Part shown: piece after piece, positions 5,582 through 56,790 of the stretch | Position numbering within the stretch: the stretch's first letter is position 1 | How the letters are laid out: the number at the start of each line of letters is the position of its first letter | Source of the DNA: Burkholderiales bacterium | GTDB taxonomy: Bacteria > Pseudomonadota > Gammaproteobacteria > Burkholderiales > SG8-41 | Direction: 5' to 3' | DNA: 64,000 bases | NCBI GenBank assembly: GCA_030683105.1 | Contig: JAUXMZ010000037.1 | Span: 767-64,766 of the forward strand | The notes under the pieces: model-generated | The model's input: only the letters and a program-made list of their open reading frames with translations | What the model was told of the DNA's origin: nothing | The model's database searches: none | Made by a program: the position numbers and the translations under genes

Positions 5582-6118
5582 TCAGACGGCTAGCAGACGC
5601 TGCATATCCCGCTGGAAGGCCGGTTCCAAGTCCAGGTCATGCAACTCTTTGGCAAGATTGAACTGTCTGTTTGTCTTGGCCACCTCCAACAAACTATCCT
5701 CTATCTCATAGTTTCCGCGGCTCTTTAGCCAGTCGAGAACAGTTGCAAGGTGCCAGATAGTCGGCGTCCCTTCGTGTACCGGAGGAGGGAATACCGAATT
5801 CACCTGGATTGCCAACTTCCGAATGTTCTGCCGGCTGAAACCCAGGAGCTTCGCAATATCGGTCAGTCCAACAAAATCAGGAGCAGCCTCAACAAGTTCT
5901 GTATCCGGGATGGCTCGCTTGACATCAGCGAAGGCGCTTAGTACAGCTTCCGAAGCGGACTTTGCTTCTCGCGTGAAGTCGAGACCGATTCGACCTGGTT
6001 GTCCAATCCCCACCAAGGCATCTGTGCAGCCTGCTTCACCCAGACGCTCAACGAGCTCGTCAATGTTCGCCTCAGGGCTCTTGAGGGCTAATTTCAAGGT
6101 GAATTGATATTCAGTCAT
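5582..6118 (-). CDS. Helix-turn-helix DNA-binding protein of unknown function
   Basis: ORF 5582..6184 trimmed to the ATG at 6118 (MTEYQFTLKLALKSPEANIDELVERLGEAGCTDALVGIG...). The central ...GLTDIAKLLGFSRQNIRKLA... looks like an HTH. The family was not firmly recognised. Confidence 0.45.
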   Translation of the reverse strand: MTEYQFTLKLALKSPEANIDELVERLGEAGCTDALVGIGQPGRIGLDFTREAKSASEAVLSAFADVKRAIPDTELVEAAPDFVGLTDIAKLLGFSRQNIRKLAIQVNSVFPPPVHEGTPTIWHLATVLDWLKSRGNYEIEDSLLEVAKTNRQFNLAKELHDLDLEPAFQRDMQRLLAV

Positions 6119-6249
6119 CGTCGTTCTCCTGGCCGGTGGCACTGCCCTCCACCGCGCGATTGCGCGGGTTGCAATTATCGACATCCATTCGCTTCCGCAT
6201 GTCGCAGGGCGCCTTCTACTTCTTTCTTAGGGTGTGATGTTCTTGCCAT
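6111..6249 (-). pseudogene. Possible remnant of a small gene once coupled to the HTH gene
   Basis: ATG at 6249 reads MARTSHPKKEVEGALRHAEANGCR then stops. A +1 frame continues DVDNCNPRNRAVEGSATGQENDDD and ends in GATGACTGA, overlapping the downstream ATG. This suggests an internal deletion. Identification is weak. Confidence 0.2.
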
Positions 6250-6416
6250 GAACTCTCGATTCGAAAAGTAGCACTCGCCTGAAGAGTTGTCAAGTGACAA
6301 CTCTGCGCGTAAAGAGGACGCCACCCAATGGCACTACCTTGAGCAAAACACCTTTCCAATCAATTGGATAAGAAGTTTGAGCTTCCCTCTGTTTTTCGTC
6401 TCCCAAGGGTGCGGTC

Positions 6417-6611
6417 TCAAGCCGCCATTTTCTGCTCATACTGAGCCTTGATCCGGTCCTGCAGGAACCGAATCGGCGACTTGTAGCCGAGCGTGGAGTG
6501 GCGACGACTCCGGTTATAAAACACCTCGATGTAATCGAACAGACCGGCCATAGCCTCGGCGCGGGTCGCATAGCGCGTGACATGCACCCGTTCGTTCTTC
6601 AGGCTGTTGAA
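6417..6611 (-). mobile_element. IS3-family transposase C-terminal remnant
   Basis: ...FNSLKNERVHVTRYATRAEAMAGLFDYIEVFYNRSRRHSTLGYKSPIRFLQD... is the end of a DDE integrase-core OrfB. Upstream of it the sequence switches into the repeat island. Confidence 0.8.
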
Positions 6612-6614
6612 GGG

Positions 6615-6875
6615 TGCGCTCGACGGGTACGAACCATGCCGCAAAGCAAATACCCGGAGGGTGCCAATCACTAATTACCAATCACTGCCTTTAACACCAA
6701 TCACCGGTTCTAGTCACGATTCACGAACCATGCCGCAAAGCAAATACCCGGAGGGTACGAACCACGTAACACGAACCACGGCCTTTCTCACGAATCGCGG
6801 CCTTTGATTCACCAATCACCAATTATTCATTTCAATACCCCTTGGGAGGTACTAATTACCAATTACTAATCACGG
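6615..6875. repeat. Large composite repeat island (two reverse P boxes, heptamers, stem-loop module)
   Basis: P boxes at 6635-6661 and 6729-6755. CAATCAC/CACGAAC units are present, and CATTTCAATACCCCTTGGGAGGTACTAATTACC lies at 6826-6860. Confidence 0.9.
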
Positions 6876-34029: not shown

Positions 34030-34440
34030 TTACTCGAACCCCAGTGCATTGATGTCGGCAGGCTCAAACGGATTGCGTCCGTCGAAGATCACCGGGTTCT
34101 TCAGGCGTGAATTGATGACACTGAAGCCTGAGCTCTTGAAGGCTTTCCACTTAGTCACGATGATGAGTGCATCGGCGTTGTTAAGAACATCCCGCGGGGT
34201 TGCAACGAAATTAAGTTGGCGTTCTCCCTCAATGTCGGCAGTGAAGCGCAGCCGGCCGACGGCGACGTTCTTTTGCACCATGTGCTCAAGGCCGAGTTCG
34301 TAGAACGGAATATCGCTTTCCGGAAGGATACGGATCTTGTTGGCGCCGACGTCGAGACAGAGGACGTCGTTGTCGACCTCCGCGAGACAGGTGCCAGAGA
34401 CAAGGCTGACGTAGCCGGTGCCGTTGACGGTGATTTTCAA
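34030..34440 (-). pseudogene. ugd: UDP-glucose/GDP-mannose dehydrogenase gene with a large internal deletion
   Basis: The 136-aa ORF joins an N-terminal Rossmann part (MKITVNGTGYVSLVSGTCLAEVDNDVLCLDV...GRLRFTADI) directly to a C-terminal tail (...ALIIVTKWKAF...IFDGRNPF...). About 300 aa of a normal enzyme are missing, and the GxGxxG motif is degraded (NGTGYVS). Confidence 0.75.
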
Positions 34441-37257: not shown

Positions 37258-38729
37258 TACTTACTCCGACCGTAGTTATCTTCGAATCGAACGATATCGT
37301 CTTCGCCCAGATAGCTGCCCGACTGGACTTCGATCATCTCCAATGGGGTCTTGCCGGGGTTCTCCAGACGGTGAGCGGTGCCCAGTGAGATGTAGGTGGA
37401 TTGGTTCTCGGACAACAGGAATGTTTCTTCCCCACGAGTGACCTTGGCCGTACCCTTGACCACGATCCAATGCTCTGCACGGTGGTGGTGCATTTGCAAA
37501 CTAAGTTTGGCGCCGGGCTTGACAGTGATACGCTTGACCTGGAAGCGCTCGCCCACATCAACGCAATCGTATGCCCCCCATGGTCGGGCGGCGCGGCGGT
37601 GTTGCGTGGCTTGGGGAGCGCCGGTTGCCTCCAATTCAGCAACCACCGTCTTGACCAGCTCAGCATGGCTGCAGGCCGCAACCAGAAGTGCGTCCGGGCT
37701 GTCTATGATAAGGAGATCCCGGGTCCCCAGCGCGACCACGGGTCGATGTGGGGCATGGATGTAGGTATTGTTGGCTTGCACTGCCCTGCCTTGACCATGA
37801 ATGCGGTTGGCCATTTCATCGGCAGGGGTGAGCTCTGCCACGGCGTTCCAACTCCCCACGTCGCTCCACTGACCGGTAAAGGGCACCATGGCGACCTTGT
37901 CGTGATGCTCAAGCACGGCGTAATCGATGGAATCGCTTGGGCAGGCGGCAAAGGCCTCTGGGTCCAGCCGGATAAAGAGGCCGTCCTCGGTTTGCTGCGC
38001 CGTGGCCAGGCGGCAGGCCGTAAGGATGTCGGGGGCGTGCTGTTCAAGCGCCATGATGATGGTGCTGGCCTTGGCCAGGAAGATGCCGGCGTTCCAATAA
38101 TGACCGCCGGCCAGGAGAAGTTGCCGGGCGCTGTCGGCGTCCGGCTTTTCGATGAAGCGGGCGACATTGAAAACCGGTGGTTCGTGGTTCGTACCCGTCG
38201 AGCGGGTATTGAAAAGAATGCTTCGTTGGTCGTTGTTCGTTGATCGTGGATCGTGATTCACGACTTTTATGTATCCATAGGCAGTGCTGGGAAACGTGGG
38301 CAGCACCCCGAAGGTGACTATGTAACCCGCCTGGGCAGAAGGCACACCTTTCTGAATTGTGGCTGCAAACGCTTGTGCATCGGGAATATGGTGGTCTGCC
38401 GGAGCGAACAGCAAAAGCTGATCCGGCTGGGCATTGAGCGCCGCAACCGCCATAGCGGGTGCCGTGTTGCGGCCGACGGGTTCCAGTATGTGTCGCGCGC
38501 TGACGCCCGCGGCCTCTGCTGCCTCCTGCACGAGGAAGCGGTGCTCGTCGCTCGCCACGGTTTGCATCTGCGGCGAGATGTGCTTTACGCGCTCCAGCGT
38601 CAGTTGCAGCAAGCTTTTGCCATTGATCAGCGGCACGAATTGCTTGGGAAAAGCTTTGCGCGACAATGGCCACAGGCGCGTACCCGAGCCACCGCAAAGC
38701 AGGACAGGAAGGATGTTCGTCACACTCAT
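37257..38729 (-). CDS. manC: Mannose-1-phosphate guanylyltransferase / mannose-6-phosphate isomerase
   Basis: 490 aa. ...VLLCGGSGTRLWPLSR...GRNTAPA...WSDVGSW...QVKRITVKPGAKLSLQMHHHRAEHWIVVKGTA.... It contains an in-frame composite repeat (38176..38258). Confidence 0.9.
   Translation of the reverse strand: MSVTNILPVLLCGGSGTRLWPLSRKAFPKQFVPLINGKSLLQLTLERVKHISPQMQTVASDEHRFLVQEAAEAAGVSARHILEPVGRNTAPAMAVAALNAQPDQLLLFAPADHHIPDAQAFAATIQKGVPSAQAGYIVTFGVLPTFPSTAYGYIKVVNHDPRSTNNDQRSILFNTRSTGTNHEPPVFNVARFIEKPDADSARQLLLAGGHYWNAGIFLAKASTIIMALEQHAPDILTACRLATAQQTEDGLFIRLDPEAFAACPSDSIDYAVLEHHDKVAMVPFTGQWSDVGSWNAVAELTPADEMANRIHGQGRAVQANNTYIHAPHRPVVALGTRDLLIIDSPDALLVAACSHAELVKTVVAELEATGAPQATQHRRAARPWGAYDCVDVGERFQVKRITVKPGAKLSLQMHHHRAEHWIVVKGTAKVTRGEETFLLSENQSTYISLGTAHRLENPGKTPLEMIEVQSGSYLGEDDIVRFEDNYGRSK
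38176..38258. repeat. Composite repeat (heptamers + stem-loop + heptamers) inside the manC coding sequence
   Basis: GGTGGTT CGTGGTT C-GTACCCGTCGAGCGGGTAT-TGAAAAGAATGCTT CGTTGGT CGTTGTT CGTTGAT CGTGGAT CGTGATT. It is translated as NHDPRSTNNDQRSILFNTRSTGTNHEPP. The same composite is intergenic at 45494-45627 and 49576-49690. Confidence 0.9.
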
Positions 38730-38852
38730 GGTTCGTGATTGGTGTTAAGGGCGGTGATTAGTGTTAAGGGCGGTGATTAGTAACTAGAATCAGTGATTAG
38801 TGACTGGTAATTGGTGAATCAAACAACCGTGGCTCATTGATCGTGGTTCGTG
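38730..38852. repeat. Repeat island (heptamers plus two GTGTTAAGGGCGGTGATT boxes)
   Basis: It begins immediately after the manC start codon. K boxes start at about 38741 and 38760. Confidence 0.9.
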
Positions 38853-39368: not shown

Positions 39369-39688
39369 TCGTCTGCGGGATTCAGCGCGGCCTCGAGATC
39401 GACCTTGACCCCCTTGGTCAGAGCGCGCATGCGCTTGGCCAAATCGGTATCGATGGCGCGCAAATGCTGCGGATGTTCAGCGATATTCCGGGCCAGGAAA
39501 TCCAGAAAAGAGCCCAGAACCGGGTCGTCACTCTGTTCGGCACGCTGCAAAATCACGGAGCCGTTGCTCTGCACGACATAGCGAATGCGGTCGCGCTTGC
39601 CGAGCTTGAGCGCGCGACGCACGGCATCCGGCACGGTCGTTTGATAGCGATCGGTCAGCGTGGATTCGAGTTCAAAGGTAGCAGACAT
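39365..39688 (-). CDS. prlF: PrlF/SohA-type (AbrB-fold) antitoxin
   Basis: ORF trimmed to MSATFELESTLTDRYQTTVPDAVRRALKLGKRDRIRYVVQSNGSVIL.... An AGGAA lies 7 nt upstream, and the gene has a 4-nt overlap with yhaV. Confidence 0.8.
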   Translation of the reverse strand: MSATFELESTLTDRYQTTVPDAVRRALKLGKRDRIRYVVQSNGSVILQRAEQSDDPVLGSFLDFLARNIAEHPQHLRAIDTDLAKRMRALTKGVKVDLEAALNPADE

Positions 39689-39718
39689 GACCATTTCCTT
39701 TCTGAACAGATACAGAAG

Positions 39719-39744
39719 CATGGTAATGCACACGCATTACCATG
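39719..39744 (-). promoter_or_regulatory. Perfect palindrome upstream of prlF (candidate operator)
   Basis: CATGGTAATGC-ACAC-GCATTACCATG has 11-bp perfect arms and lies 31 nt upstream of the prlF start. Confidence 0.5.
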
Positions 39745-39780
39745 TCAATGTCGCTCAAAGGCCGGGGCGGGCTTACCCCA

Positions 39781-39960
39781 GTGATTAGTGATTGGTGATT
39801 AGTGATTGGCACCCGCCGGGTATTTGCTTTGCGGCATGGTTCGCACCCTCCGGGTATTTGCTTTGCGGCATGGTTTGTACCCGTCTAGCGCACCCCTCGA
39901 GGGGGTATTGAAAAGAAGGTATTAAAGTGAATGGGTCGTGGGTCGTGAGTCGTTGTTCGT
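39781..39960. repeat. Composite repeat island (heptamers, tandem P boxes, stem-loop modules)
   Basis: P boxes lie at 39812-39838 and 39846-39872, a 34-nt pitch. GTACCCGTCTAGCGCACCCCTCGAGGGGGTATTGAAAAGAAGGTATT and CGTGGGT CGTGAGT CGTTGTT units are also present. Confidence 0.9.
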
Positions 39961-40344
39961 CTATTGCTGTTCTTGTAAGCGCATTAGCAGTAGCTTTTGC
40001 TCCGGCAGGAAATGACTGAGACGGTCGTACACCGCTAATGCGTGCTTGGCATTGTATGTATGAGACATCCGATTCCTCGCCTCGAGCATTTCCAGCCAAG
40101 TCTCCTCGTCACTAATCCAGCCGAGGCTGAATGCTTGCTTTAAGCATGCCTTGGGAGATGCACATTCCGGCAAGCCTTGCGACAACGATGCGAGTTTGAT
40201 CGATTTCCATGCGAGTTCAAAGGAAAATTCAAAGTACTGGATGCATCCGGCCTTGATCAAATCGCTGTCTGCAGGCACCGATAAGGCGCTCTCCAGTTGT
40301 GACAGGGCTGTTTCATAATCCGCGAGGATCCAGTTCTCACTCAT
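39961..40344 (-). CDS. Nucleotidyltransferase substrate-binding protein, HI0074 family (HEPN-type toxin partner)
   Basis: MSENWILADYETALSQLESAL...IQYFEFSFELAWKSIK...ARNRMSHTYN.... It has an 8-nt overlap with the MNT gene. Confidence 0.75.
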   Translation of the reverse strand: MSENWILADYETALSQLESALSVPADSDLIKAGCIQYFEFSFELAWKSIKLASLSQGLPECASPKACLKQAFSLGWISDEETWLEMLEARNRMSHTYNAKHALAVYDRLSHFLPEQKLLLMRLQEQQ

Positions 40345-40651
40345 ATAAAACCTCAATGTGCTCCATTGCCCGTTCTCTGAATTCGGGATTGACTCGATTT
40401 AGATCCACCCAATCAATTTTATAAAGAGTGGGCAAATCGTCAAACGTGTCCTCTATCGCAAAAAATGTTTTCAAAGGCAGCGGTTCGTCACCATACGCGC
40501 CTACGTCGAAATCGGAGCGTGGGCGCGCTTTCCCGGTCGCTCGCGATCCAAACAGAAAAACCCGATGCCCTTTTAACTCGGTCTTATATCGGAGCAATTG
40601 CTGCTTGAGCATAGCCTTGATTTGTACGGCTCGTTGGTCGTTGGTCGGCAT
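40337..40651 (-). CDS. Minimal nucleotidyltransferase (MNT) domain protein
   Basis: 104 aa. ...VFLFGSRATGKARPRSDFDVGAY.... The first ~7 codons (MPTNDQR) are written in heptamer units. An alternative start is at MLKQQL. Confidence 0.75.
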   Translation of the reverse strand: MPTNDQRAVQIKAMLKQQLLRYKTELKGHRVFLFGSRATGKARPRSDFDVGAYGDEPLPLKTFFAIEDTFDDLPTLYKIDWVDLNRVNPEFRERAMEHIEVLYE

Positions 40652-40700
40652 TCGTTGTTCGTTGTTCGTTGTTCGTTGTTCGTGTTAAGGGCGGTGATTA
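40632..40700. repeat. Heptamer tract (CGTTGGT x2, TCGTTGT x4) plus K box
   Basis: It overlaps the MNT start codon at 40651. Confidence 0.9.
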
Positions 40701-41478: not shown

Positions 41479-41514
41479 ATTCCATGCCTCATTTGCCTTG
41501 CTCTATTTTAACAA

Positions 41515-41531
41515 TTGATATCATATATCAA
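41515..41531 (-). promoter_or_regulatory. Palindrome upstream of the RHH antitoxin (candidate operator)
   Basis: TTGATAT-CAT-ATATCAA is nested in an outer CCTTGC...GCAAGG symmetry, about 40 nt upstream of the start at 41478. Confidence 0.4.
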
Positions 41532-41717
41532 TAGGCAAGGTACACCACATCATAACTAATGGCCAACAAAATCATCGCGCTAGGTCGAGGTTCGCAGGCC
41601 GTTGTTCGTTGTTCGTGTTAAGGGCAGTAATCCATATTATGGATAGTTGTAAAGCCCGCAGCTTCTGCGGCAGGCGTAACCCAATTTCTGCCACTGGTCG
41701 CGGCCGGGGCGCCGCCG

Positions 41718-42929
41718 CTATCTGCCCAGGAGATAGCGGCGCAGGAGGTCCAGCCGTGCGGCTTGCTCGGGATTTTGGCGGGCTTTTTGGCCGGCCTCCT
41801 TAATAAATGCCCATATGACGGCCAGGAAGCCTGCCACAAGGGCGGTCAGTATCACGATAAGCGCGCGTTTGGGACTGGACCTGCGATCAGGTTCGATGGC
41901 CTTATCCATGACCTGGATGATGGAGGAATCCTTGGCTTCGTCGATCTTGGCAAGCCCATACTGCTGCGCGAGCAGTTCGTAGACCGTTTCGTTGTACTTC
42001 AGATCGCGCAACAGACCCAGGTTGTCGATGCCTTCGCTATTGGTTTTCTGAGCATCTTCAGGTTTGCCAGCGGCACCCTCTATTTTCGCAAGCTGGCGTT
42101 TCATCGCTTCCAGCTCCTGCTGTGCCATCAACAGGTCAGGGTTGCGCTCGGCGGCAAAGGTTCGCATGGCGCCGATCTGCACTTCCTTGACGGTGATCTG
42201 TGCCCGCAATCGGGCGCTGCTTTCCGCCATGCTGCGGCCCTGGCCTTCGACCTGGACGAGGCCGCCTTTTTCCAGCGCCTGCCGGGCAGTCGCTTCGGAT
42301 TTGGTGAGATTGACCTTGGCCTGCTCCAACTGGCGTTCGAAAAACAGGCGACGCTGGGCGGCTTCGGTCACTGCCAGCACATTGGTCAGTTTATCGAGCT
42401 CCTCCACATAGGCATTGGCGAGGGTGGCCGCGCGCTTTGGATCCTTGTCGTCCACGGCGATGGAAATTATGCCGTCCTTGCCGGAGGTGATCGTCGACAC
42501 GTTCTCCAGTTGTTTACGGGTGTGGGATTGGTATTCCTTCCCGTAAAGCTTGTTCAGATCGAAGCGCTGGATCAGGTTGTCCGCCACAGTACGGCTCTTG
42601 AGCATAGCGACGTACATGTCGTTGGGGTTCTTGATGCCAGCCACTCCGCCAGCCAACCCGGCAACGGCGCCGAGCTGGTTCAGCATGGCGGAAGCGGTCG
42701 ACTGGCTTTGCTGCGGCGGCAGGATCTTCGTCGTCGCCGTGAAGATAGGGGTCATCAGCAAGCTGACGATCACGGCGAGAACCGCGGCCAGGAAGGGAAG
42801 GCCGAGGATTAGCTTCTTATGCTTCGCCAGGACGATGGCGAGATCAATAAGATTGATCTCGTCATCGTCTGGTGGCTCAACACTTGTGATTGGTGATTGG
42901 TGATTGGTGATTAGTGATTCTTCGCTCAT
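41718..42929 (-). CDS. Wzz/chain-length-determinant family protein (no kinase domain)
   Basis: 403 aa. It has an N-terminal TM (LILGLPFLAAVLAVIVSLLM), a long coiled-coil periplasmic part and a C-terminal TM (ALIVILTALVAGFLAVIWAFI). Residues 5-16 ([12 protein letters not shown]) are encoded by heptamer units. Confidence 0.75.
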   Translation of the reverse strand: MSEESLITNHQSPITSVEPPDDDEINLIDLAIVLAKHKKLILGLPFLAAVLAVIVSLLMTPIFTATTKILPPQQSQSTASAMLNQLGAVAGLAGGVAGIKNPNDMYVAMLKSRTVADNLIQRFDLNKLYGKEYQSHTRKQLENVSTITSGKDGIISIAVDDKDPKRAATLANAYVEELDKLTNVLAVTEAAQRRLFFERQLEQAKVNLTKSEATARQALEKGGLVQVEGQGRSMAESSARLRAQITVKEVQIGAMRTFAAERNPDLLMAQQELEAMKRQLAKIEGAAGKPEDAQKTNSEGIDNLGLLRDLKYNETVYELLAQQYGLAKIDEAKDSSIIQVMDKAIEPDRRSSPKRALIVILTALVAGFLAVIWAFIKEAGQKARQNPEQAARLDLLRRYLLGR

Positions 42930-43051
42930 GATTGGTGATTAGCGTTAAAAACAGTGATTGGCGAACGGCGGTGATTGGTAACTAGAACCAGTGATTAGTA
43001 ATTAGTAATTGGTGTTAAGGGCAGTGATTAGTAACTGGTAATTAGTGATTA
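42883..43051. repeat. Repeat island spanning the wzz-like start codon
   Basis: TTGTGAT TGGTGAT x3 TAGTGAT lies at 42884-42918, inside the CDS. Heptamers and K-box variants then run up to 43051. Confidence 0.9.
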
Positions 43052-43736
43052 GCAAGGCTTGGTGTTGGTTAGCGCGGCTGAGCACCCTATCGTCGTCAGC
43101 GCCAGGCTCCATTTCGGCAACGTAATCCACCTCGTGGCCGTCTTCCCGGAGCCGCAGCACAATCGGCCTGTCAACGCCTTCGTGAAGAGTCCCTAACATA
43201 GTGAAACACGTGTGCGTTGCGAGTCAAAATTGGTGATGACGCGAAGGATGGCGCAGAGCATATCGCGAATATGGTCAAGCCGGCCGACAAAGTGTCCCGT
43301 GCAGGGCGGAGCAGGTTCCAAGTGTTCTATGCTTGGATGCGACCCCGGAGCGGGACGAAAGCGCGCCATCATGTACGGGCCTAATGCACGCCTGCGCGGT
43401 CGCATCCCCGCAAGCGGGGCCCCTGCTCCACGCTTCGGCGCGCCGCCGATTTTGATCGCAACCCTTCGGGCTGACACGAGTTTTGGCCTGTCGCCCCCGG
43501 CTCTCGGCGAGCGCAGCTTTGGGGCGGAGACGGGGGCCGGGGGGTGCCGCAACTCCCGCAACCGGGGCTTGGGCGCCGTTCCCGCAAACGGGCCTGCGGC
43601 AAACGAGTCACGGCGCCCCCTTGTCGCTCCCCTTGCCCATATTCGCGATATGGCCTGCGGAAAGCTTCGCGTCCTGAGCCAAAATCGTGCCAGCGCATCT
43701 CGCGTTTCACTATGTTAGGGACTCAAAGAGCTTCAC
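43002..43736 (-). pseudogene. DUF5615 (PIN-like) toxin gene, interrupted by a MITE and 3'-truncated by heptamer repeats
   Basis: The GTG at 43736 overlaps the DUF433 stop. Deleting 43187-43724 plus one AA restores GTG AAG CTC TTT CAC GAA GGC... = MKLFHEGVDRPIVLRLREDGHEVDYVAEMEPGADDDRVL.... After ~50 codons the frame runs into repeats (...ALLITNYQLLITALNTNY*). Confidence 0.7.
43187..43724. mobile_element. MITE-like non-autonomous element (538 bp) with 21-bp perfect terminal inverted repeats
   Basis: GAGTCCCTAACATAGTGAAAC lies at 43187-43207 and its reverse complement at 43704-43724. The imperfect IR extends to ~95 bp and includes CATATCGCGAATATGG in both arms. The element is flanked by AA/AA and has three CCCGCAANCGGG hairpins inside. 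Confidence 0.8.
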
Positions 43737-43969
43737 GCAGCCTTATCGGCAATCGGATAGATCACATCCCCTCGAAGTGCTTGCGCAGCAAATTCGAGTG
43801 CCGCCAATATGTCGTCTTGTTTCAGGCGCGGATGCGCTTCCAGGATTTGCTCCGTAGACTCCCCGTGCGCGAGTTTTTCCAGGATGCTTTCCACGGTAAT
43901 ACGGGTGCCAGCAATAACCGGTTTACCCATCATCACAGTCGGATTGGATTCAATATGTGCTTGATTCAT
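43733..43969 (-). CDS. DUF433 antitoxin-like protein
   Basis: MNQAHIESNPTVMMGKPVIAGTRITVESILEKLAHGESTEQILEAHPRLKQDDILAALEFA.... Confidence 0.75.
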   Translation of the reverse strand: MNQAHIESNPTVMMGKPVIAGTRITVESILEKLAHGESTEQILEAHPRLKQDDILAALEFAAQALRGDVIYPIADKAA

Positions 43970-44043
43970 ATAGACCTCCGTAGAATTATTATTATACACA
44001 CCCTACTCGACAGCCTTGGGGCGCGGCTTAATGGCCGTGACTG

Positions 44044-44087
44044 GTGTCAAAAAACAGTGATTAGTGATTAGTGATTGGTGATTAGTA
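44044..44087. repeat. Heptamer tract with K-box variant
   Basis: GTGTCAAAAAACAGTGATTAGTGATTAGTGATTGGTGATTAG. Confidence 0.9.
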
Positions 44088-44091
44088 GTCA

Positions 44092-44412
44092 TCAACTGCC
44101 AGCCTGGCTTTTTATGGAGCGGATCAGGCCTTGAAGCATTTTCGATATTGTTTCCAGATGATTCTGTAATTCGTCAAGTTTGCGGCTATCACCTAATCCT
44201 ATTTTTCTTGATATCTCGATCTGCGTATCCAGTTCACTGGCCGAACCCAGGGCAATGTAGAGGAACTGCAGAAATTCCTTGTTGCCTTGCCGCGCTGCGC
44301 CTTCCGCGATGTTGCTCGCGATCGAGACAGCACTTCGTTTCATTTGGCTGACAATACCGTATTGCTCGTCCTTCGGATATGCCTTGGTCAGTTCGTAGGT
44401 GTCCCGTGCCAA
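44092..44412 (-). pseudogene. Four-helix-bundle protein (23S rRNA IVS-protein family), N-terminally truncated copy
   Basis: ...ARDTYELTKAYPKDEQYGIVSQMKRSAVSIASNIAEGAARQGNKEFLQFLYIALGSASELDTQIEISRKIG.... It lacks the first ~16 residues of the neighbouring paralogue. The upstream end is a repeat tract. Confidence 0.6.
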
Positions 44413-44448
44413 AGGCAGTGATTAGTGATTAGTAACTGGTGATTGGTA
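44405..44448. repeat. Heptamer tract with K-box variant
   Basis: CGTGCCAAAGGCAGTGATTAGTGATTAGTAACTGGTGATTGG. Confidence 0.9.
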
Positions 44449-44452
44449 GCCA

Positions 44453-44818
44453 TCAACTGCTAGCCTGGCTCTTTACGGAGCGGATCAGGCCCTGAATCAT
44501 TTTCGATATCGATTCCAAATTCTCTTGCACTTCAAGAAGCTCCTTGGTGTCCCCTAAGCCTATTTCCCTTGACACCTCGATTTGTGTATCTAACTCGCTT
44601 GCCGAACCAAGAGCAATGTACAAAAACTGTATAAATTCCTTGTTGCCCTGCCGTGCCGCGCCTTCAGCTATGTTGCTAACCACCGACACGGCGGCGCGGC
44701 GCATTTGGGAAGCCAAACCATACATTTCCTCTTTAGGATAGCCGTTCGTGGCATGGTATACCGCTTTGACCAACTGGATACCGTGTTTCCAGACTTCTAG
44801 GTCTTTGTGCGATTTCAT
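44453..44818 (-). CDS. Four-helix-bundle protein (23S rRNA IVS-protein family)
   Basis: 121 aa. MKSHKDLEVWKHGIQLVKAVYHATNGYPKEEMYGLASQMRRAAVSVVSNIAEGAARQGNKEFIQFLYIALGSASELDTQIEVS.... Confidence 0.8.
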   Translation of the reverse strand: MKSHKDLEVWKHGIQLVKAVYHATNGYPKEEMYGLASQMRRAAVSVVSNIAEGAARQGNKEFIQFLYIALGSASELDTQIEVSREIGLGDTKELLEVQENLESISKMIQGLIRSVKSQASS

Positions 44819-44822
44819 AAAT

Positions 44823-44937
44823 CGGTGATTGGTGTTAAGGGCGGTGACTGGTGACTGGTGATTGGTGATTAGTGACTGGTAATTGGTGAATCAACAACCG
44901 TGGCTAGTGGTTCGCGGATCGGGGGTCGTTGGTCGTG
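44823..44937. repeat. Repeat island (K box, GTGACTG/GTGATTG units, CGTTGGT units)
   Basis: It overlaps the 3' end of the parE pseudogene, whose tail ...NRTTNDPRSANH* is repeat-encoded. Confidence 0.9.
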
Positions 44938-45219
44938 CGGTTCTTCCAGTAACCTGGCCTTCTGCTAGTGTGGGCGATTGCTACAACGAGGAATTCGTCG
45001 CGGTACTCAAGGTAAATGATTGCATAGGGGAACCGGTTGGTCACGCCGCATCCGATTCCCGATAGATCTCCCTGAGGCCGGAAACTGCTGAACAAATTGG
45101 GTTGCCTTCACGAACTCCGAGAGGAACGCTGCGCCAAGTCCAACCTGCCGTTCATCATAGAACCCAGCCGTCTCAACCAGTTCGACATCAGCCTCCGCCG
45201 ACAGCCGTACCGGCTTCAC
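44904..45219 (-). pseudogene. parE: ParE/RelE-family toxin gene with a 1-nt frameshift
   Basis: Frame A reads MKPVRLSAEADVELVETAGFYDERQVGLGAAFLSEFVKATQFVQQFPASGRSIGNRMRR.... Frame B reads ...VTNRFPYAIIYLEYRDEFLVVAIAHTSRRPGYWKNR. The two join around 45040-45046. Confidence 0.7.
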
Positions 45220-52520: not shown

Positions 52521-52584
52521 AGTGATTGGTGATTGGTGATTGGTGATTAGTGTTAAGGGCAGTGATTGGTAACTAGTGATTAGA
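52521..52584. repeat. Heptamer tract plus K box
   Basis: AGTGATT GGTGATT GGTGATT GGTGATT AGTGTTAAGGGCAGTGATTGGTAACTAGTGATTAG. Confidence 0.9.
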
Positions 52585-52832: not shown

Positions 52833-52871
52833 GTCAAATTAAATGGGCCCCGAGGACCGGGGGCATTTAAT
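52833..52871 (+). repeat. 38-bp GC-hairpin repeat, copy 1 (direct repeat flanking the phd-PIN module)
   Basis: GTCAAATTAAATGGGCCCCGAGGACCGGGGGCATTTAAT. Confidence 0.85.
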
Positions 52872-53017
52872 CAGTAATTGGTGATTAGTGATTGGCACCC
52901 TCCGGGTATTTGCTTTGCGGCATGATTGGTGTCAAAGGCCGTGGTTCGTACCCGTCAAGCGAGTGTTGAAAAGAAGGTATTGAAAGGAAGGTATTGTGAA
53001 GAATGGGTCGTGCGTGG
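52872..53017. repeat. Composite repeat island (heptamers, P box, stem-loop module)
   Basis: The P box lies at 52898-52924. GTACCCGTCAAGCGAGTGTTGAAAAGAAGGTATTGAAAGGAAGGTATTGTGAAGAATGGGTCGTGCGTGG ends at the PIN gene stop. Confidence 0.9.
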
Positions 53018-54033: not shown

Positions 54034-56790
54034 TCAAAATCCTTTCAGGACTTTGATCCCCGCCACGCCCAGCGCGAACTGGTAGAAGATCTGCGACCAG
54101 TCTTTCAATTCTTTGGTGAGACGGAATTTCTCGAGCCGCACCGGCACCACAACCGTGTCGCCCGGCATCAGGCGTTCGCCCTGGAAGCTGCCGCCAAAGA
54201 ACCAGCCGCCCGATTGGCGGCGGCTGATGACCGAGCCATCGGCCCGGATCACGTACAGGCTGTCGGTTTCCGCATCGACAGTAGGCCCGCCAGCCTGGGC
54301 CAGATAATCCGAGACCCGCTTGTCGGGCTGGAAAATGAACGCGTTTTCGTTGTACACCTCGCCGATGACGTTGACGATGGACGGCCGCGAGGGCACGACG
54401 AAACGGTCGCCGTCTTCCAGGGCGAGGTCAGGCAAGGCGCCGGGATGGGTCGCCTCCGGGCCGGGCAGTTCGAGCACGATGCGCCCGGTCGCACGCACCT
54501 GGCGCAGCCGGGCGATCAGTGCCTGCTGCGCGGCCGTATCTGCCTTCACAGCCGATGTGTCTGCGTCCGAAATTACGTTTTGACTCCCGGTAATGGCAAT
54601 GCGTTGCATCTCACGTTCCAGGCGACTGACGGCTTCTTCGAGTTTCTTTTGCTGGAAGGCGCGGGTCGATTCGCGTGTGAACTCCGCCCCGAACAGGTAG
54701 GCATTCGGGGTGAGGCCGCCTATCCGCGTGATCAATTGACGCAACGTCTCGCCGGGCAGCGCCTGATACATACCCGCATGGTTGAATTCACCCTCTGTCC
54801 GGATGTAAACCCTTTGCTTGGCCAGCGGGACCTGGATCTCGCTCTTGGAAAAAATCGTGATTTCATCGCCCGCGCTGAGCAACAGGTTGTTCTGCGCGTC
54901 ACCCTCGATGACAGCTTTGCCCAGGTTGAACGGCACCAGCGTCCGGGTAAGATCGATGGGTTGCAGCCGCACCAGGTTGGCATAGTCCCAGGTGATTTCG
55001 TTATTGCCTGTCACGGCGCCGGTGTGCAGCCAGTAACTGTAGTAGTCGATCAGCCATTGCGCGCTGGGAATGACATCGCGCACGCGCATGCCTTCGCGCC
55101 AGGCAAAGCGCCGCGGGTTGCCGCCGATGACGCTGCCGCGCAGCAGCACGTCGTTCTCGGTTTTCGGCAGCGCATCCTCGAAGGAATAGATGGTGACCAC
55201 ATCGCCCTGTTCGAGCATGACGTTCTCGCGCGCGTCGCCGCGGATGGCCTTGCCCAGGTTGAAGGCATACATGCGCGTCACGAGATCCTTGCGGTCAAGG
55301 CGCTGAATCGTGGCGTAGTCGAAGTTCACTTCACGCCGGTTGTAGTTGGCGTACAACCCGCCGCTATTCTGCCGCTGCCAATAGGCGGTGGTGATGAGGG
55401 CGTTCTGATCGACGAGAAGATCGGTGACGCGCATGCCCTGGCGCCACGGGTAGCGCGCCGCCGCCGCGACATTGCCCTGCAGGCGCACGGCATTGTCGAA
55501 GCGCGGCGTGATCGAGGCGACAGTAATCACGTCGCCGTCCTGCAGTTTCCGCGCGAGGCCGGCCTGGTCCAGTGCGAACTCGTCCACCCTGCGCACGGTG
55601 CGATCCACGATGCGTTCGACGATGGCTTTCTGGCCCTGCGCCGTGGTGGTGAAGCCGCCGGCGAGCTTGATGAGCTCCGCGAAGGTGGTCGTGTCCTTGA
55701 GCTCGAAGATCGCCTGCGTGTTCACGCTGCCCGAGAGCGCGGCGAGTTGGCCGACGGGGGGTATGTAGATCACATCGCCGGGCAGGAGCCGGGCGTCTTT
55801 GGATTTGTCGCCGTTTACCAGCAGGTCGTACATGTCGAATTCCGCGACAATCTGGGTGCCGCGCTTGAGCTGGATGCGGCGCATGGAGCCCTTGGCCGAT
55901 GGGCCGCCGGAGGCAAACAGCGCATTGACCAGGGTCGAGAGCGAACTCACCGTGTACACGCCGGGGCGGGCAGCTTGACCGACGACGAACACCTGGATCG
56001 AGCGCAGTTCACCCATCGTGACATTGAGTTCGAAGTTGCGGAAGTTCCGGCCGATCGCCGTCTTCAGAAATCCGTGCAAGTCCTGGAACCGCAAGCCCGC
56101 TACAGACAGCGTGCCCACTTTCGGGATATTGATCTGCCCATTGCGATCAACGACGGCGGTGTACTGGACATCGATCTGGCCCCAGGCCTGAATGACGATG
56201 CTGTCGCCGGGCCCGATCACATAGTCTGATGTGACGGGAATACGGTCCACCGGCGCGAACGTACTCGGCGCGCCCTGGAACAGGTTGTAGCCGAACAGGG
56301 GGAGCACGAGGCCGGTCGATTGGGCAACGAAGTCCTGGAACTGGTTGCGCTCATTGATGTCGACGAACCCCGGGGCTTGGGGCTGGGCCTGTATTTGCGG
56401 CTGGGTTTGCGTATCAGGCTGCGCGGCGGCAGCGGCAGGTATGGCAGTGGGCGCGGACACGCCCGGGACGGTCGCTCCGGGGGCAGTCGCTCTGGGAGCG
56501 GTCGCTCCGGGGGCAGTCGATGCCGCGCCGGGCCGGGAGGCGGCTGGCGCCTGTGCAGGAGAAACCGGAGTTCCCGGGATAGACGCACCGGAGGCAGGAC
56601 GACCCGCCGGGGTGGCGGCTGGTTGATTGGTAATGACAGGGGTTTGAACAGGGGCGGCGGGGGCCGGGGCTGCCGATGAGGCGGGAGCGGCGGATGAGCC
56701 CGCGCCGGTGCCGCCTCCGAGGTCTTGCGCCTGCGCCAGCGCGGGCAGGAACAGCAAAACGAACAGTAGTCGATGCAATCCTGAGGTCAT
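54034..56790 (-). CDS. Polysaccharide export protein (Wza-like, multiple SLBB domains) with Ala/Pro-rich N-terminal region
   Basis: 918 aa. It has the signal peptide MTSGLHRLLFVLLFLPALAQA, ~130 aa of low-complexity A/P/T/Q sequence, and then repeated ...GDVIxI...V.V.GEV..PG-type SLBB units. The long plus-strand ORFs here are antisense shadows. Confidence 0.8.
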   Translation of the reverse strand: MTSGLHRLLFVLLFLPALAQAQDLGGGTGAGSSAAPASSAAPAPAAPVQTPVITNQPAATPAGRPASGASIPGTPVSPAQAPAASRPGAASTAPGATAPRATAPGATVPGVSAPTAIPAAAAAQPDTQTQPQIQAQPQAPGFVDINERNQFQDFVAQSTGLVLPLFGYNLFQGAPSTFAPVDRIPVTSDYVIGPGDSIVIQAWGQIDVQYTAVVDRNGQINIPKVGTLSVAGLRFQDLHGFLKTAIGRNFRNFELNVTMGELRSIQVFVVGQAARPGVYTVSSLSTLVNALFASGGPSAKGSMRRIQLKRGTQIVAEFDMYDLLVNGDKSKDARLLPGDVIYIPPVGQLAALSGSVNTQAIFELKDTTTFAELIKLAGGFTTTAQGQKAIVERIVDRTVRRVDEFALDQAGLARKLQDGDVITVASITPRFDNAVRLQGNVAAAARYPWRQGMRVTDLLVDQNALITTAYWQRQNSGGLYANYNRREVNFDYATIQRLDRKDLVTRMYAFNLGKAIRGDARENVMLEQGDVVTIYSFEDALPKTENDVLLRGSVIGGNPRRFAWREGMRVRDVIPSAQWLIDYYSYWLHTGAVTGNNEITWDYANLVRLQPIDLTRTLVPFNLGKAVIEGDAQNNLLLSAGDEITIFSKSEIQVPLAKQRVYIRTEGEFNHAGMYQALPGETLRQLITRIGGLTPNAYLFGAEFTRESTRAFQQKKLEEAVSRLEREMQRIAITGSQNVISDADTSAVKADTAAQQALIARLRQVRATGRIVLELPGPEATHPGALPDLALEDGDRFVVPSRPSIVNVIGEVYNENAFIFQPDKRVSDYLAQAGGPTVDAETDSLYVIRADGSVISRRQSGGWFFGGSFQGERLMPGDTVVVPVRLEKFRLTKELKDWSQIFYQFALGVAGIKVLKGF

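Follow-up and report, generated by a model that had tools for sequence, protein, structure and literature searches.

Tandem repeats placed directly behind a start codon raise the question of whether the gene that they open is switched on and off by slippage of the repeat, or has simply taken up a repeat that is common in its genome. The window examined here, a stretch of 64,000 nucleotides from a Burkholderiales bacterium (contig JAUXMZ010000037.1), contains a Wzz-type polysaccharide chain-length gene whose open reading frame (ORF) passes, after ATG AGC GAA G, into five units of a heptanucleotide repeat. A preliminary description of this DNA had proposed that the tract is a slipped-strand switch that could make capsule chain length phase-variable. 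We favour another reading, to which we give a probability of about 0.6, namely that the tract belongs to a family of 7-bp arrays scattered through the genome, which resemble the short tandemly repeated repetitive (STRR) sequences of cyanobacteria, and that it has been absorbed into a tolerant N-terminal tail. Most likely it did not evolve as a device for wzz but forms part of a leader element that recurs at many sites. Coordinates of the features are collected in Table 1.

The ORF matches the Pfam families Wzz (4.1e-17, residues 23-121) and GNVR (4.8e-11, residues 304-379), with only weak matches to the EpsF, Wzc and FepE models; the structures of Wzc and FepE are likewise weakly similar. An AlphaFold2 (AF2) model built on a 40-sequence alignment places helices at residues 27-58 and 355-385 with long helices between them. 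With a Wzz domain, a GNVR domain and two predicted transmembrane (TM) helices around a helical periplasmic region, the protein is assigned to the Wzz or polysaccharide co-polymerase class. A protein from a metagenome-assembled genome (MAG) at NCBI ('Burkholderiales bacterium') has the same sequence and is annotated with an identical start. The surrounding locus is devoted to polysaccharide, with a Wza-like exporter (54034-56790), manC, fcl, gmd and a NeuB-type synthase.

On the plus strand the tract consists of TTGTGAT (42884-42890), three copies of TGGTGAT (42891-42911) and TAGTGAT (42912-42918), followed at 42919-42929 by TCTTCGCTCAT, the reverse complement of ATGAGCGAAGA. Read from the start of the gene this is ATG AGC GAA G, then AATCACT, three units of AATCACC and AATCACA; the coordinates, units and translation given in the preliminary description, including its three identical units, are correct. 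Tandem Repeats Finder reports the tract at 42886-42919 with a period of 7, 4.9 copies, 96% matches and a score of 61. Units of the same family also precede the ATG, and the heptamer lattice continues in register across the start as AATCACC, AATCATG, AGCGAAG, AATCACT.

An alternative that has to be considered at the outset is that the real wzz start lies downstream and that the heptamers are a stop-free, untranslated leader into which the ORF has been extended. Stop-free sense units do over-extend ORFs in this window, as seen in the spurious ORFs 39672-39812 and 39785-40099 and in ORF 46750-46980, and at the related locus L161 a mutated unit, CCAATGA, supplies the called ATG. However, as had been claimed earlier, no ATG, GTG or TTG occurs in frame between codons 1 and 53 of wzz, codon 53 lies inside the first TM helix, and the Pfam Wzz domain begins already at residue 23. 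The 11-mer ATGAGCGAAGA is identical at the wzz starts of the window and of the related loci L162, L166, L167 and L092, and no further exact copy of it occurs in the window; in L168/L169 it also opens an unrelated MNT gene. Relatives of wzz that are free of repeats start with ATG ACC GAA at the same distance from the conserved motif DDDEISLLDL. Because this island is conserved at the nucleotide level and the repeat-free relatives begin at the same position, the start codon is placed upstream of the tract; a downstream start, which had been foreseen as an objection to the switch, is ruled out on these sequence comparisons, and we consider the extension artefact highly improbable. The protein P0055, considered as an OFF allele for its apparent lack of the residues MSEES, was rejected, as its ATG is again a mutated unit CCAATGA that lies in frame.

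The heptamers at wzz are far from isolated. A three-unit pattern of the family, GTGATTNGTGATTNGTGATT, is matched at 30 sites of the window when one mismatch is allowed, whereas 100 shuffles give an expectation of 0.00, and about 26 heptamer arrays together make up 923 nt. On the gene map, which was made from our own ORF calls with Pfam and NCBIfam searches since an exact look-up of the window Wzz protein gave no record, all of them fall in two islands rich in toxin-antitoxin genes, at 1-7 kb and 35-54 kb, and none lies in the tightly packed glycan operon (7-34 kb) or past 54 kb. The islands hold MqsRA, four PIN genes, Phd/YefM, two MazEF pairs, MNT/HEPN, PrlF, DUF433/DUF5615 and two 23S-IVP genes, and the conserved genes of the locus (MarR-like, RfaH/NusG-like, wzz and manC) are interleaved with them. 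The units form a continuum around CAC-N-W-A-Y that includes AATCACY, ACGAACC, ACGAATC, ACAACGA, ACGTACC and CCACGAA. In 21 of 26 window arrays the strand that is rich in C and nearly devoid of G has the same sense as the flanking genes, the exceptions being mostly one arm of an inverted array pair; in five loci of relatives, taken with database gene calls, 33 of 37 arrays are sense-oriented and 30 of 37 intergenic. Sense units are C/A-rich and free of stop codons, except for TAA in one frame of AATCACT, and the antisense unit GGTGATT supplies TGA; therefore only sense copies can be translated, and ORFs are easily prolonged through them.

Some further observations concern the islands and their borders. 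Inverted array pairs are found at 50513-50541/50545-50604, 51327-51347/51491-51514, 53878-53910/53993-54026 and 1125-1152/1257-1277, and could form long hairpins, for example CGTGGTACGTGGTACGTG with CACGTACCACGTACCACG. An N-terminal fragment of UDP-glucose 6-dehydrogenase (136 aa, 34030-34440) and an 84-aa piece of an rve integrase core (6417-6671) lie at the edges of the heptamer-rich islands. The glycan-synthesis operon (10000-34000) has a G+C content of 0.44-0.53, against 0.54-0.65 in its flanks; this low G+C and the lack of arrays suggest that it may have been acquired recently by horizontal transfer.

Amongst confidently called genes of the window, arrays are found only in wzz, gmd and manC. 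Compared with the L163 orthologue, the gmd loop that carries the array is replaced and 6 aa longer, and at its array manC has about 22 residues more than PDB 2x5s, again in a variable loop, so translated arrays appear to persist in proteins at sites that the structural comparison indicates to be tolerant. For wzz, AF2 gives a predicted local distance difference test score (pLDDT) below 50, without secondary structure, to residues 1-25, which are partly encoded by the tract. Since arrays of the same kind are also read in frame within gmd and manC and occupy most gaps between genes, the array is to be regarded as a genome-wide repeat class and not as a device of wzz. The three coding arrays are short (4.4-4.9 copies, 87-96% match); at wzz the 4.9 imperfect copies include only 3 perfect units, whereas non-coding arrays in the window reach 9.6 perfect copies. 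Selection against instability within genes would produce such a pattern. The window's best candidates for true length polymorphism are two non-coding arrays, the longest perfect one, upstream of mqsR/mqsA (Table 1), and (CCACGAA) with 6.7 copies and 97% match at 49638-49684, between PIN modules.

Heptamer-encoded tails are common in the clade of this protein. The closest match to the window Wzz among about 5.8 billion clustered protein sequences has 73% identity, and in the 120 closest homologues (61-73% identity) such N-terminal tails are present in 48, always behind the conserved start ATGAGCGAAGA. Seven unit types are involved, namely AATCACC (translated ITNHQSP, 20 homologues), ACGAACC (NHEPRTT, 14), GCACTCA (STQHSAL, 8) and four others that account for 6. 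At the DNA level, arrays lie on both sides of the wzz start in L001, L029, L081, L083, L084, L092 and L161-L167, and the upstream and downstream arrays are usually of one unit family. Of the 80 best loci from GTDB representative genomes only one is rich in heptamers, and the window genome is not found among these 80; on this count the array habit is therefore confined to a small group of mostly uncultured bacteria near Georgfuchsia, Sterolibacterium and Rhodocyclaceae. The translated unit itself is spread more widely, as (ITNHQSP)n, the translation of an AATCACC array, makes up 'hypothetical proteins' of 40-84 aa (P0254-P0373) in many Nostocales (Sphaerospermopsis, Dolichospermum, Anabaena, Nostoc), in Prosthecochloris, Pseudoxanthomonas/Xanthomonas, Chitinophagales, Sulfuriflexus and Citrobacter; probably they are not true genes but spurious reading frames across long arrays.

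How, then, does the proposed switch fare? It holds that gain or loss of a heptamer at replication turns Wzz off or on, so that chain length or capsule becomes phase-variable, as with neuO. The frame logic is sound. The unit length is not a multiple of 3 and the tract follows directly on the sole usable start; in silico, changes of -1, -2, +1 and +2 units leave ORFs of 37, 12, 19 and 44 aa, and -3 or +3 units keep the frame (396 and 410 aa). The gene also sits in a glycan locus, and heptanucleotide tracts documented as variable among isolates serve as switches in neuO (PMC9659370) and pglE (PMC7157529). Like the wzz tract, the poly-Psi tract of neuO (Escherichia coli K1, CUS-3 prophage) and that of pglE (Neisseria meningitidis) consist of 7-nt units in the coding region of a surface-glycan gene. 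The neuO and pglE tracts are much longer, with tens of units in neuO, whereas the wzz tract has its three perfect units, belongs to a genome-wide family and is constant in length among near-identical homologues. For comparison, PhasomeIt sets a minimum of 5 units for repeats of tetra- and pentanucleotides and has no rule for heptamers (PMC6321876).

The preliminary description had asked whether unit counts differ between strains or MAGs. In seven clusters of near-identical Wzz proteins, which differ at 0-10 positions in about 400 aa (P0024/121/122/123, P0046/125, P0062/127, P0011/128, P0058/130, P0109/132 and P0033/133), the length of the heptamer tail is constant, and P0016 is unchanged on 8 contigs from several samples. 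L163 and L164 are 99.73% identical, with 49 substitutions and 0 gaps over 17,966 nt that include four or five arrays. All heptamer-bearing loci read as DNA are in frame, with no OFF allele among them. Tail lengths do vary between species, the change being seen only at about 90% protein identity: P0006 and P0018 (90.5%) differ by 7 aa, which equals three units, and P0055/P0131 and P0029/P0070, though about 90% identical, have wholly different unit families in the tail. Pooling L163/L164 with a second pair of loci, L168 and L169, gives about 2 indels in about 10 arrays against 52 substitutions in about 19.5 kb, or a per-array indel rate about 75 times the per-base substitution rate; this is a rough estimate from a small sample, and it would lie orders of magnitude below the rates of known contingency loci. 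The switch logic at wzz thus resembles that of neuO and pglE, but the strain-level variability that defines such switches was not seen in the homologues. Together with arrays of the same kind in frame in gmd and manC and throughout the intergenic space, this leaves a slipped-strand switch distinctly unlikely; the tract could slip in principle, but probably not often enough for a switch. One locus, L146, was inspected as an OFF allele and rejected, as its MT-type ATG is out of frame by 1 (1940-2040) but the locus is free of heptamers; its frameshift is unrelated to them and may reflect a pseudogene or a sequencing error.

According to the favoured reading, the array family would fill spacers and 5' leaders between genes in the host betaproteobacterial lineage, and its stop-free, C/A-rich and almost G-free sense units would allow a ribosome to read through. 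At wzz the array would surround the true start codon, with translation beginning at the ATG at 42929, and the five units would encode a disordered cytoplasmic tail ahead of TM helix 1 in which extra residues are tolerated. Gain, loss and replacement of units would occur, at the wzz start apparently only between relatives of about 90% identity and with the frame kept, which makes the tract a presumed slowly evolving translated microsatellite and not a high-frequency switch. The anatomy of the tract, its start codon, the pattern across the family, the predicted disorder and the constancy among related strains are observed, while functional neutrality of the tail and a slippage rate insufficient for switching are inferred. 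Several points weigh against this reading. Contingency genes classically reside in surface-polysaccharide loci, and wzz belongs to one. The arrays do change: besides only 3 substitutions in 1.5 kb, L168 and L169 show a difference of exactly one 7-nt unit and of an array block of about 80 nt (composite), at L168 positions 1997-2003 and about 2930, both in non-coding arrays; the single-unit difference is of the kind that a switch would use. The strain-level evidence comes from relatives and not from the window locus or its population, the check at the DNA level covers about 11 loci, and protein databases under-represent OFF alleles, which makes absence among called proteins weak evidence. The strong sense-strand bias, furthermore, suggests some function, for which a neutral passenger is perhaps too weak a description.

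One such function might be exerted on the RNA. It may be proposed that G-poor arrays flanking the ATG prevent base pairing in the initiation region, or are bound by a single-strand RNA-binding protein of the S1 or cold-shock type, allowing initiation without a Shine-Dalgarno (SD) sequence, with the protein tail as a by-product. Positions -30 to -1 of wzz contain 2 G and no SD match, and the same holds upstream of manC; of 200 shuffled versions of the wzz RNA from -71 to +80, 198 are more structured than the original (z = +1.94). Arrays stop 14 nt short of the MarR-like gene and 6-9 nt before starts in L163, L166 and L168, and the sense-strand bias in the window and in the relatives points the same way. 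An equal proposal has been made for TAACTGA repeats, where SD sequences are rare too (PMC4679880). On the other side, many repeat-free genes of the window also lack a clear match in the SD scan, which is crude and hence does not discriminate, and repeat-free relatives of wzz likewise start without an SD. Arrays moreover occur after stop codons, within genes and as inverted pairs. An RNA-level role is accordingly a tentative alternative, possible but on balance rather unlikely.

The leader upstream of wzz does have a recurrent composition. The region 42989-43052 aligns with stretches 5' of manC, IVP, MNT, MarR and DUF6364, with a conserved core AGTTACTAATCACYGCCCTTAACACYAATCAC followed by a variable number of units before the first gene of at least 6 modules (manC, MNT, wzz, IVP, MarR and DUF6364). 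In gene sense, GCCCTTAACAC occurs 11 times in the window against 0.8 expected, always has arrays beside it, and precedes the first gene in each of these modules by 12-100 nt; at the IVP gene it stands 14 nt before the ATG. It is absent from all 171 related loci. Five matches in viral contigs were set aside as chance, being located inside AT-rich coding sequence without arrays. GCCCTTAACAC may be a genome-specific leader, promoter or binding element. No sigma-70 promoters or terminators were detected in the leader elements on the gene strand of 41500-45300. Separately, a composite dispersed intergenic element is present in five copies (39770-39965, 47810-47935, 49440-49670, 52860-52995 and, in reverse, 6600-6720); it consists of an array, one or two copies of a 34-nt unit GCACCCTCCGGGTATTTGCTTTGCGGCATGGTTC, ACCCGTCAAGCG...GTTGAAAAGAAGGTATTGAAA and a second array. 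Rfam has no matches in the window, this element included.

Arrays also shape the ends of neighbouring genes, and the earlier statement that repeats create gene ends here is a fair description. The DUF5615 ORF (43002-43199) matches profile positions 7-54 of 110 only and then enters an array that provides its tail. The second 23S-IVP copy (44092-44412), described earlier as a truncated four-helix-bundle copy, lacks the first 12 profile positions, starting at 13, and abuts the array 44417-44437. The parE tail, TTNDPRSANH, is encoded by degenerate ACGACC-type units as had been proposed; the gene itself, however, is split over two overlapping frames (45007-45219 and 44904-45095) and would be either a pseudogene with a frameshift or a mistake of the assembly; the partner antitoxin (Unstab_antitox, 45216-45716) appears to be intact. 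Several of these array-formed ends are truncation scars. The MNT gene was rightly said to begin within heptamer units, its ATG being placed between (ACAACGA)4 upstream and two ACCAACG units downstream. The number of residues before the motif F[LIV]FGS is 27 in 61 of the 94 motif-bearing homologues listed and 31 in the window, making the upstream ATG a plausible start; the closest homologues among those listed have longer N-extensions encoded by heptamers.

Such gene ends suggest a further explanation, in which the arrays are junctions for cassette shuffling. Toxin-antitoxin cassettes would be inserted, deleted and fused at arrays, and a portable module of leader, start island and array (ATGAGCGAAGAATCAC...) could be fused in frame to genes as little related as wzz and MNT. 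In L166 an orphan leader with ATGAGCGAAGAATCAC and an array occurs at 2563 (2520-2622) and opens an ORF of 15 codons; toxin-antitoxin genes separate it from the real wzz start, which follows 1.4 kb further downstream, and a 3' (GNVR) fragment of wzz is found downstream (6054-6377). L162 carries a degenerate, out-of-frame copy of the island (ATGAGCGTAGAC) 70 nt upstream of its start (1187-1256). The MNT genes of L168 (2103-2130) and L169 (660-690), with proteins P0138-P0140, open with ATGAGCGAAGAATCACC (MSEESPIT), the same 17 nt as wzz of L162. The toxin-antitoxin content beside wzz varies among genomes while the arrays persist, and in the window arrays mark an end of the truncated DUF5615, of the second IVP copy and of the parE tail. 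The same pattern would also be expected from ordinary homologous or illegitimate recombination between short repeats, though, and neither a recombinase nor a defined site was found; few loci were sampled, and the MSEES start on wzz and MNT could be convergent. We regard cassette shuffling as unlikely. If true, it would explain the orphan starts, the array-truncated genes and the switch of unit family in tails at about 90% protein identity, and the occurrence of the same units in Nostocales, Chlorobi and Xanthomonadaceae would suggest that arrays are made or spread by a common mechanism, perhaps an enzymatic one.

Table 1. Positions of the wzz gene, its heptamer tract and related array features (window coordinates)
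Feature	Position	Strand	Basis
Wzz/PCP-type (polysaccharide co-polymerase) chain-length gene, 403 aa, no kinase domain	41718-42929	minus	Pfam, AF2
Conserved start island ATGAGCGAAGA (Met-Ser-Glu-Glu), ATG 42927-42929	42919-42929	minus	locus comparison
Five translated heptamer units, codons 4-15; perfect block 42892-42912 in gene-strand register	42885-42919	minus	Tandem Repeats Finder, translation
Same-family heptamer units directly 5' of wzz ATG (sense TAATCACCAATC), in register with downstream units	42930-42941	minus	sequence
Composite leader element upstream of wzz: array, GCCCTTAACAC (43012-43022), array; also tail and stop of truncated DUF5615 ORF	42989-43052	minus	alignment
In-frame translated array in gmd, residues 296-307, variable loop	35378-35409	minus	alignment with L163 orthologue
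In-frame translated array in manC (HDPRSTNNDQRS, residues 159-170)	38222-38255	minus	comparison with PDB 2x5s
Longest perfect array in window, (ACAACGA) 9.6 copies, 100% match, non-coding, upstream of mqsR/mqsA	46907-46973	minus	Tandem Repeats Finder
(ACAACGA)n array around MNT start; ATG 40649-40651 in register inside	40631-40686	minus	Tandem Repeats Finder, sequence
Array between parE and full 23S-IVP gene; degenerate 5' units encode parE tail and stop	44841-44935	minus	Tandem Repeats Finder
GCCCTTAACAC sites	38742-38771, 40682-40692, 41615-41625, 43012-43022, 44832-44842
GCCCTTAACAC sites, continued	47776-47826, 49460-49470, 52550-52560, 6687-6697

As members of a dispersed class, the window arrays can be compared with several known families. 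The TAACTGA repeats (MacGregor 2015, PMC4679880) of marine Beggiatoaceae, cyanobacteria and Bacteroidetes occur in 2-6 copies, hundreds of times per genome and with a patchy phylogeny, mostly in intergenic regions a few nt upstream of starts, and occasionally within ORFs at protein peripheries. The window arrays are similar in being short, 7-nt based, intergenic, near starts and now and then inside ORFs. The TAACTGA unit, however, has stops in all three forward frames and is untranslatable in forward orientation, whereas the window units are stop-free in sense and contribute residues to N-termini and loops; the window also has more than one unit family side by side (AATCACY, ACGAACC, ACAACGA, CCACGAA), none of them TAACTGA, whereas related heptamers are rare in Beggiatoa.

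The cyanobacterial STRRs are dispersed 7-bp tandem repeats whose function is not established and for which hairpins are sometimes possible (PMC2670836), and for long simple sequence repeats (LSSR) of 5-11 nt, the work of Mrazek (2007) as cited in PMC4679880 has heptanucleotides as the most abundant class and Burkholderia species as rich in them. As in those classes, the window holds many 7-nt arrays, far above chance and mainly intergenic, and the unit AATCACC/GGTGATT is common to the window and to long Nostocales arrays, a likeness drawn from the (ITNHQSP)n ORFs. The differences are the uncultured betaproteobacterial host, the close ties of the arrays to toxin-antitoxin cassettes and a glycan locus, and a conserved start island that is embedded in the array and common to unrelated genes. 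The heptanucleotide elements of Geobacter metallireducens (GGACCGG x4 and MTYCTGA x5), found between and within genes, were proposed to be regulatory (PMC2700814). They are multicopy and have four or five tandem heptamers like the window arrays, but their units are GC-rich, their copy number is fixed and no translation into a protein tail is described.

If the switch were real, it would mean that an environmental betaproteobacterium varies the chain length of its surface polysaccharide by neuO-like heptamers, which the evidence makes unlikely. The useful outcome is instead a clear case of STRR-like arrays outside cyanobacteria that are oriented with transcription, stop-free and wrapped around starts, with added interest in the translation of sense units across a Wzz clade, the start codon within the array lattice and the association with toxin-antitoxin genes. 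For annotation this is a warning, as ORF ends beside such arrays need checking. The group offers a tractable system for the role and spread of dispersed heptamers, since the arrays are short, homologous loci are numerous and several types of unit occur.

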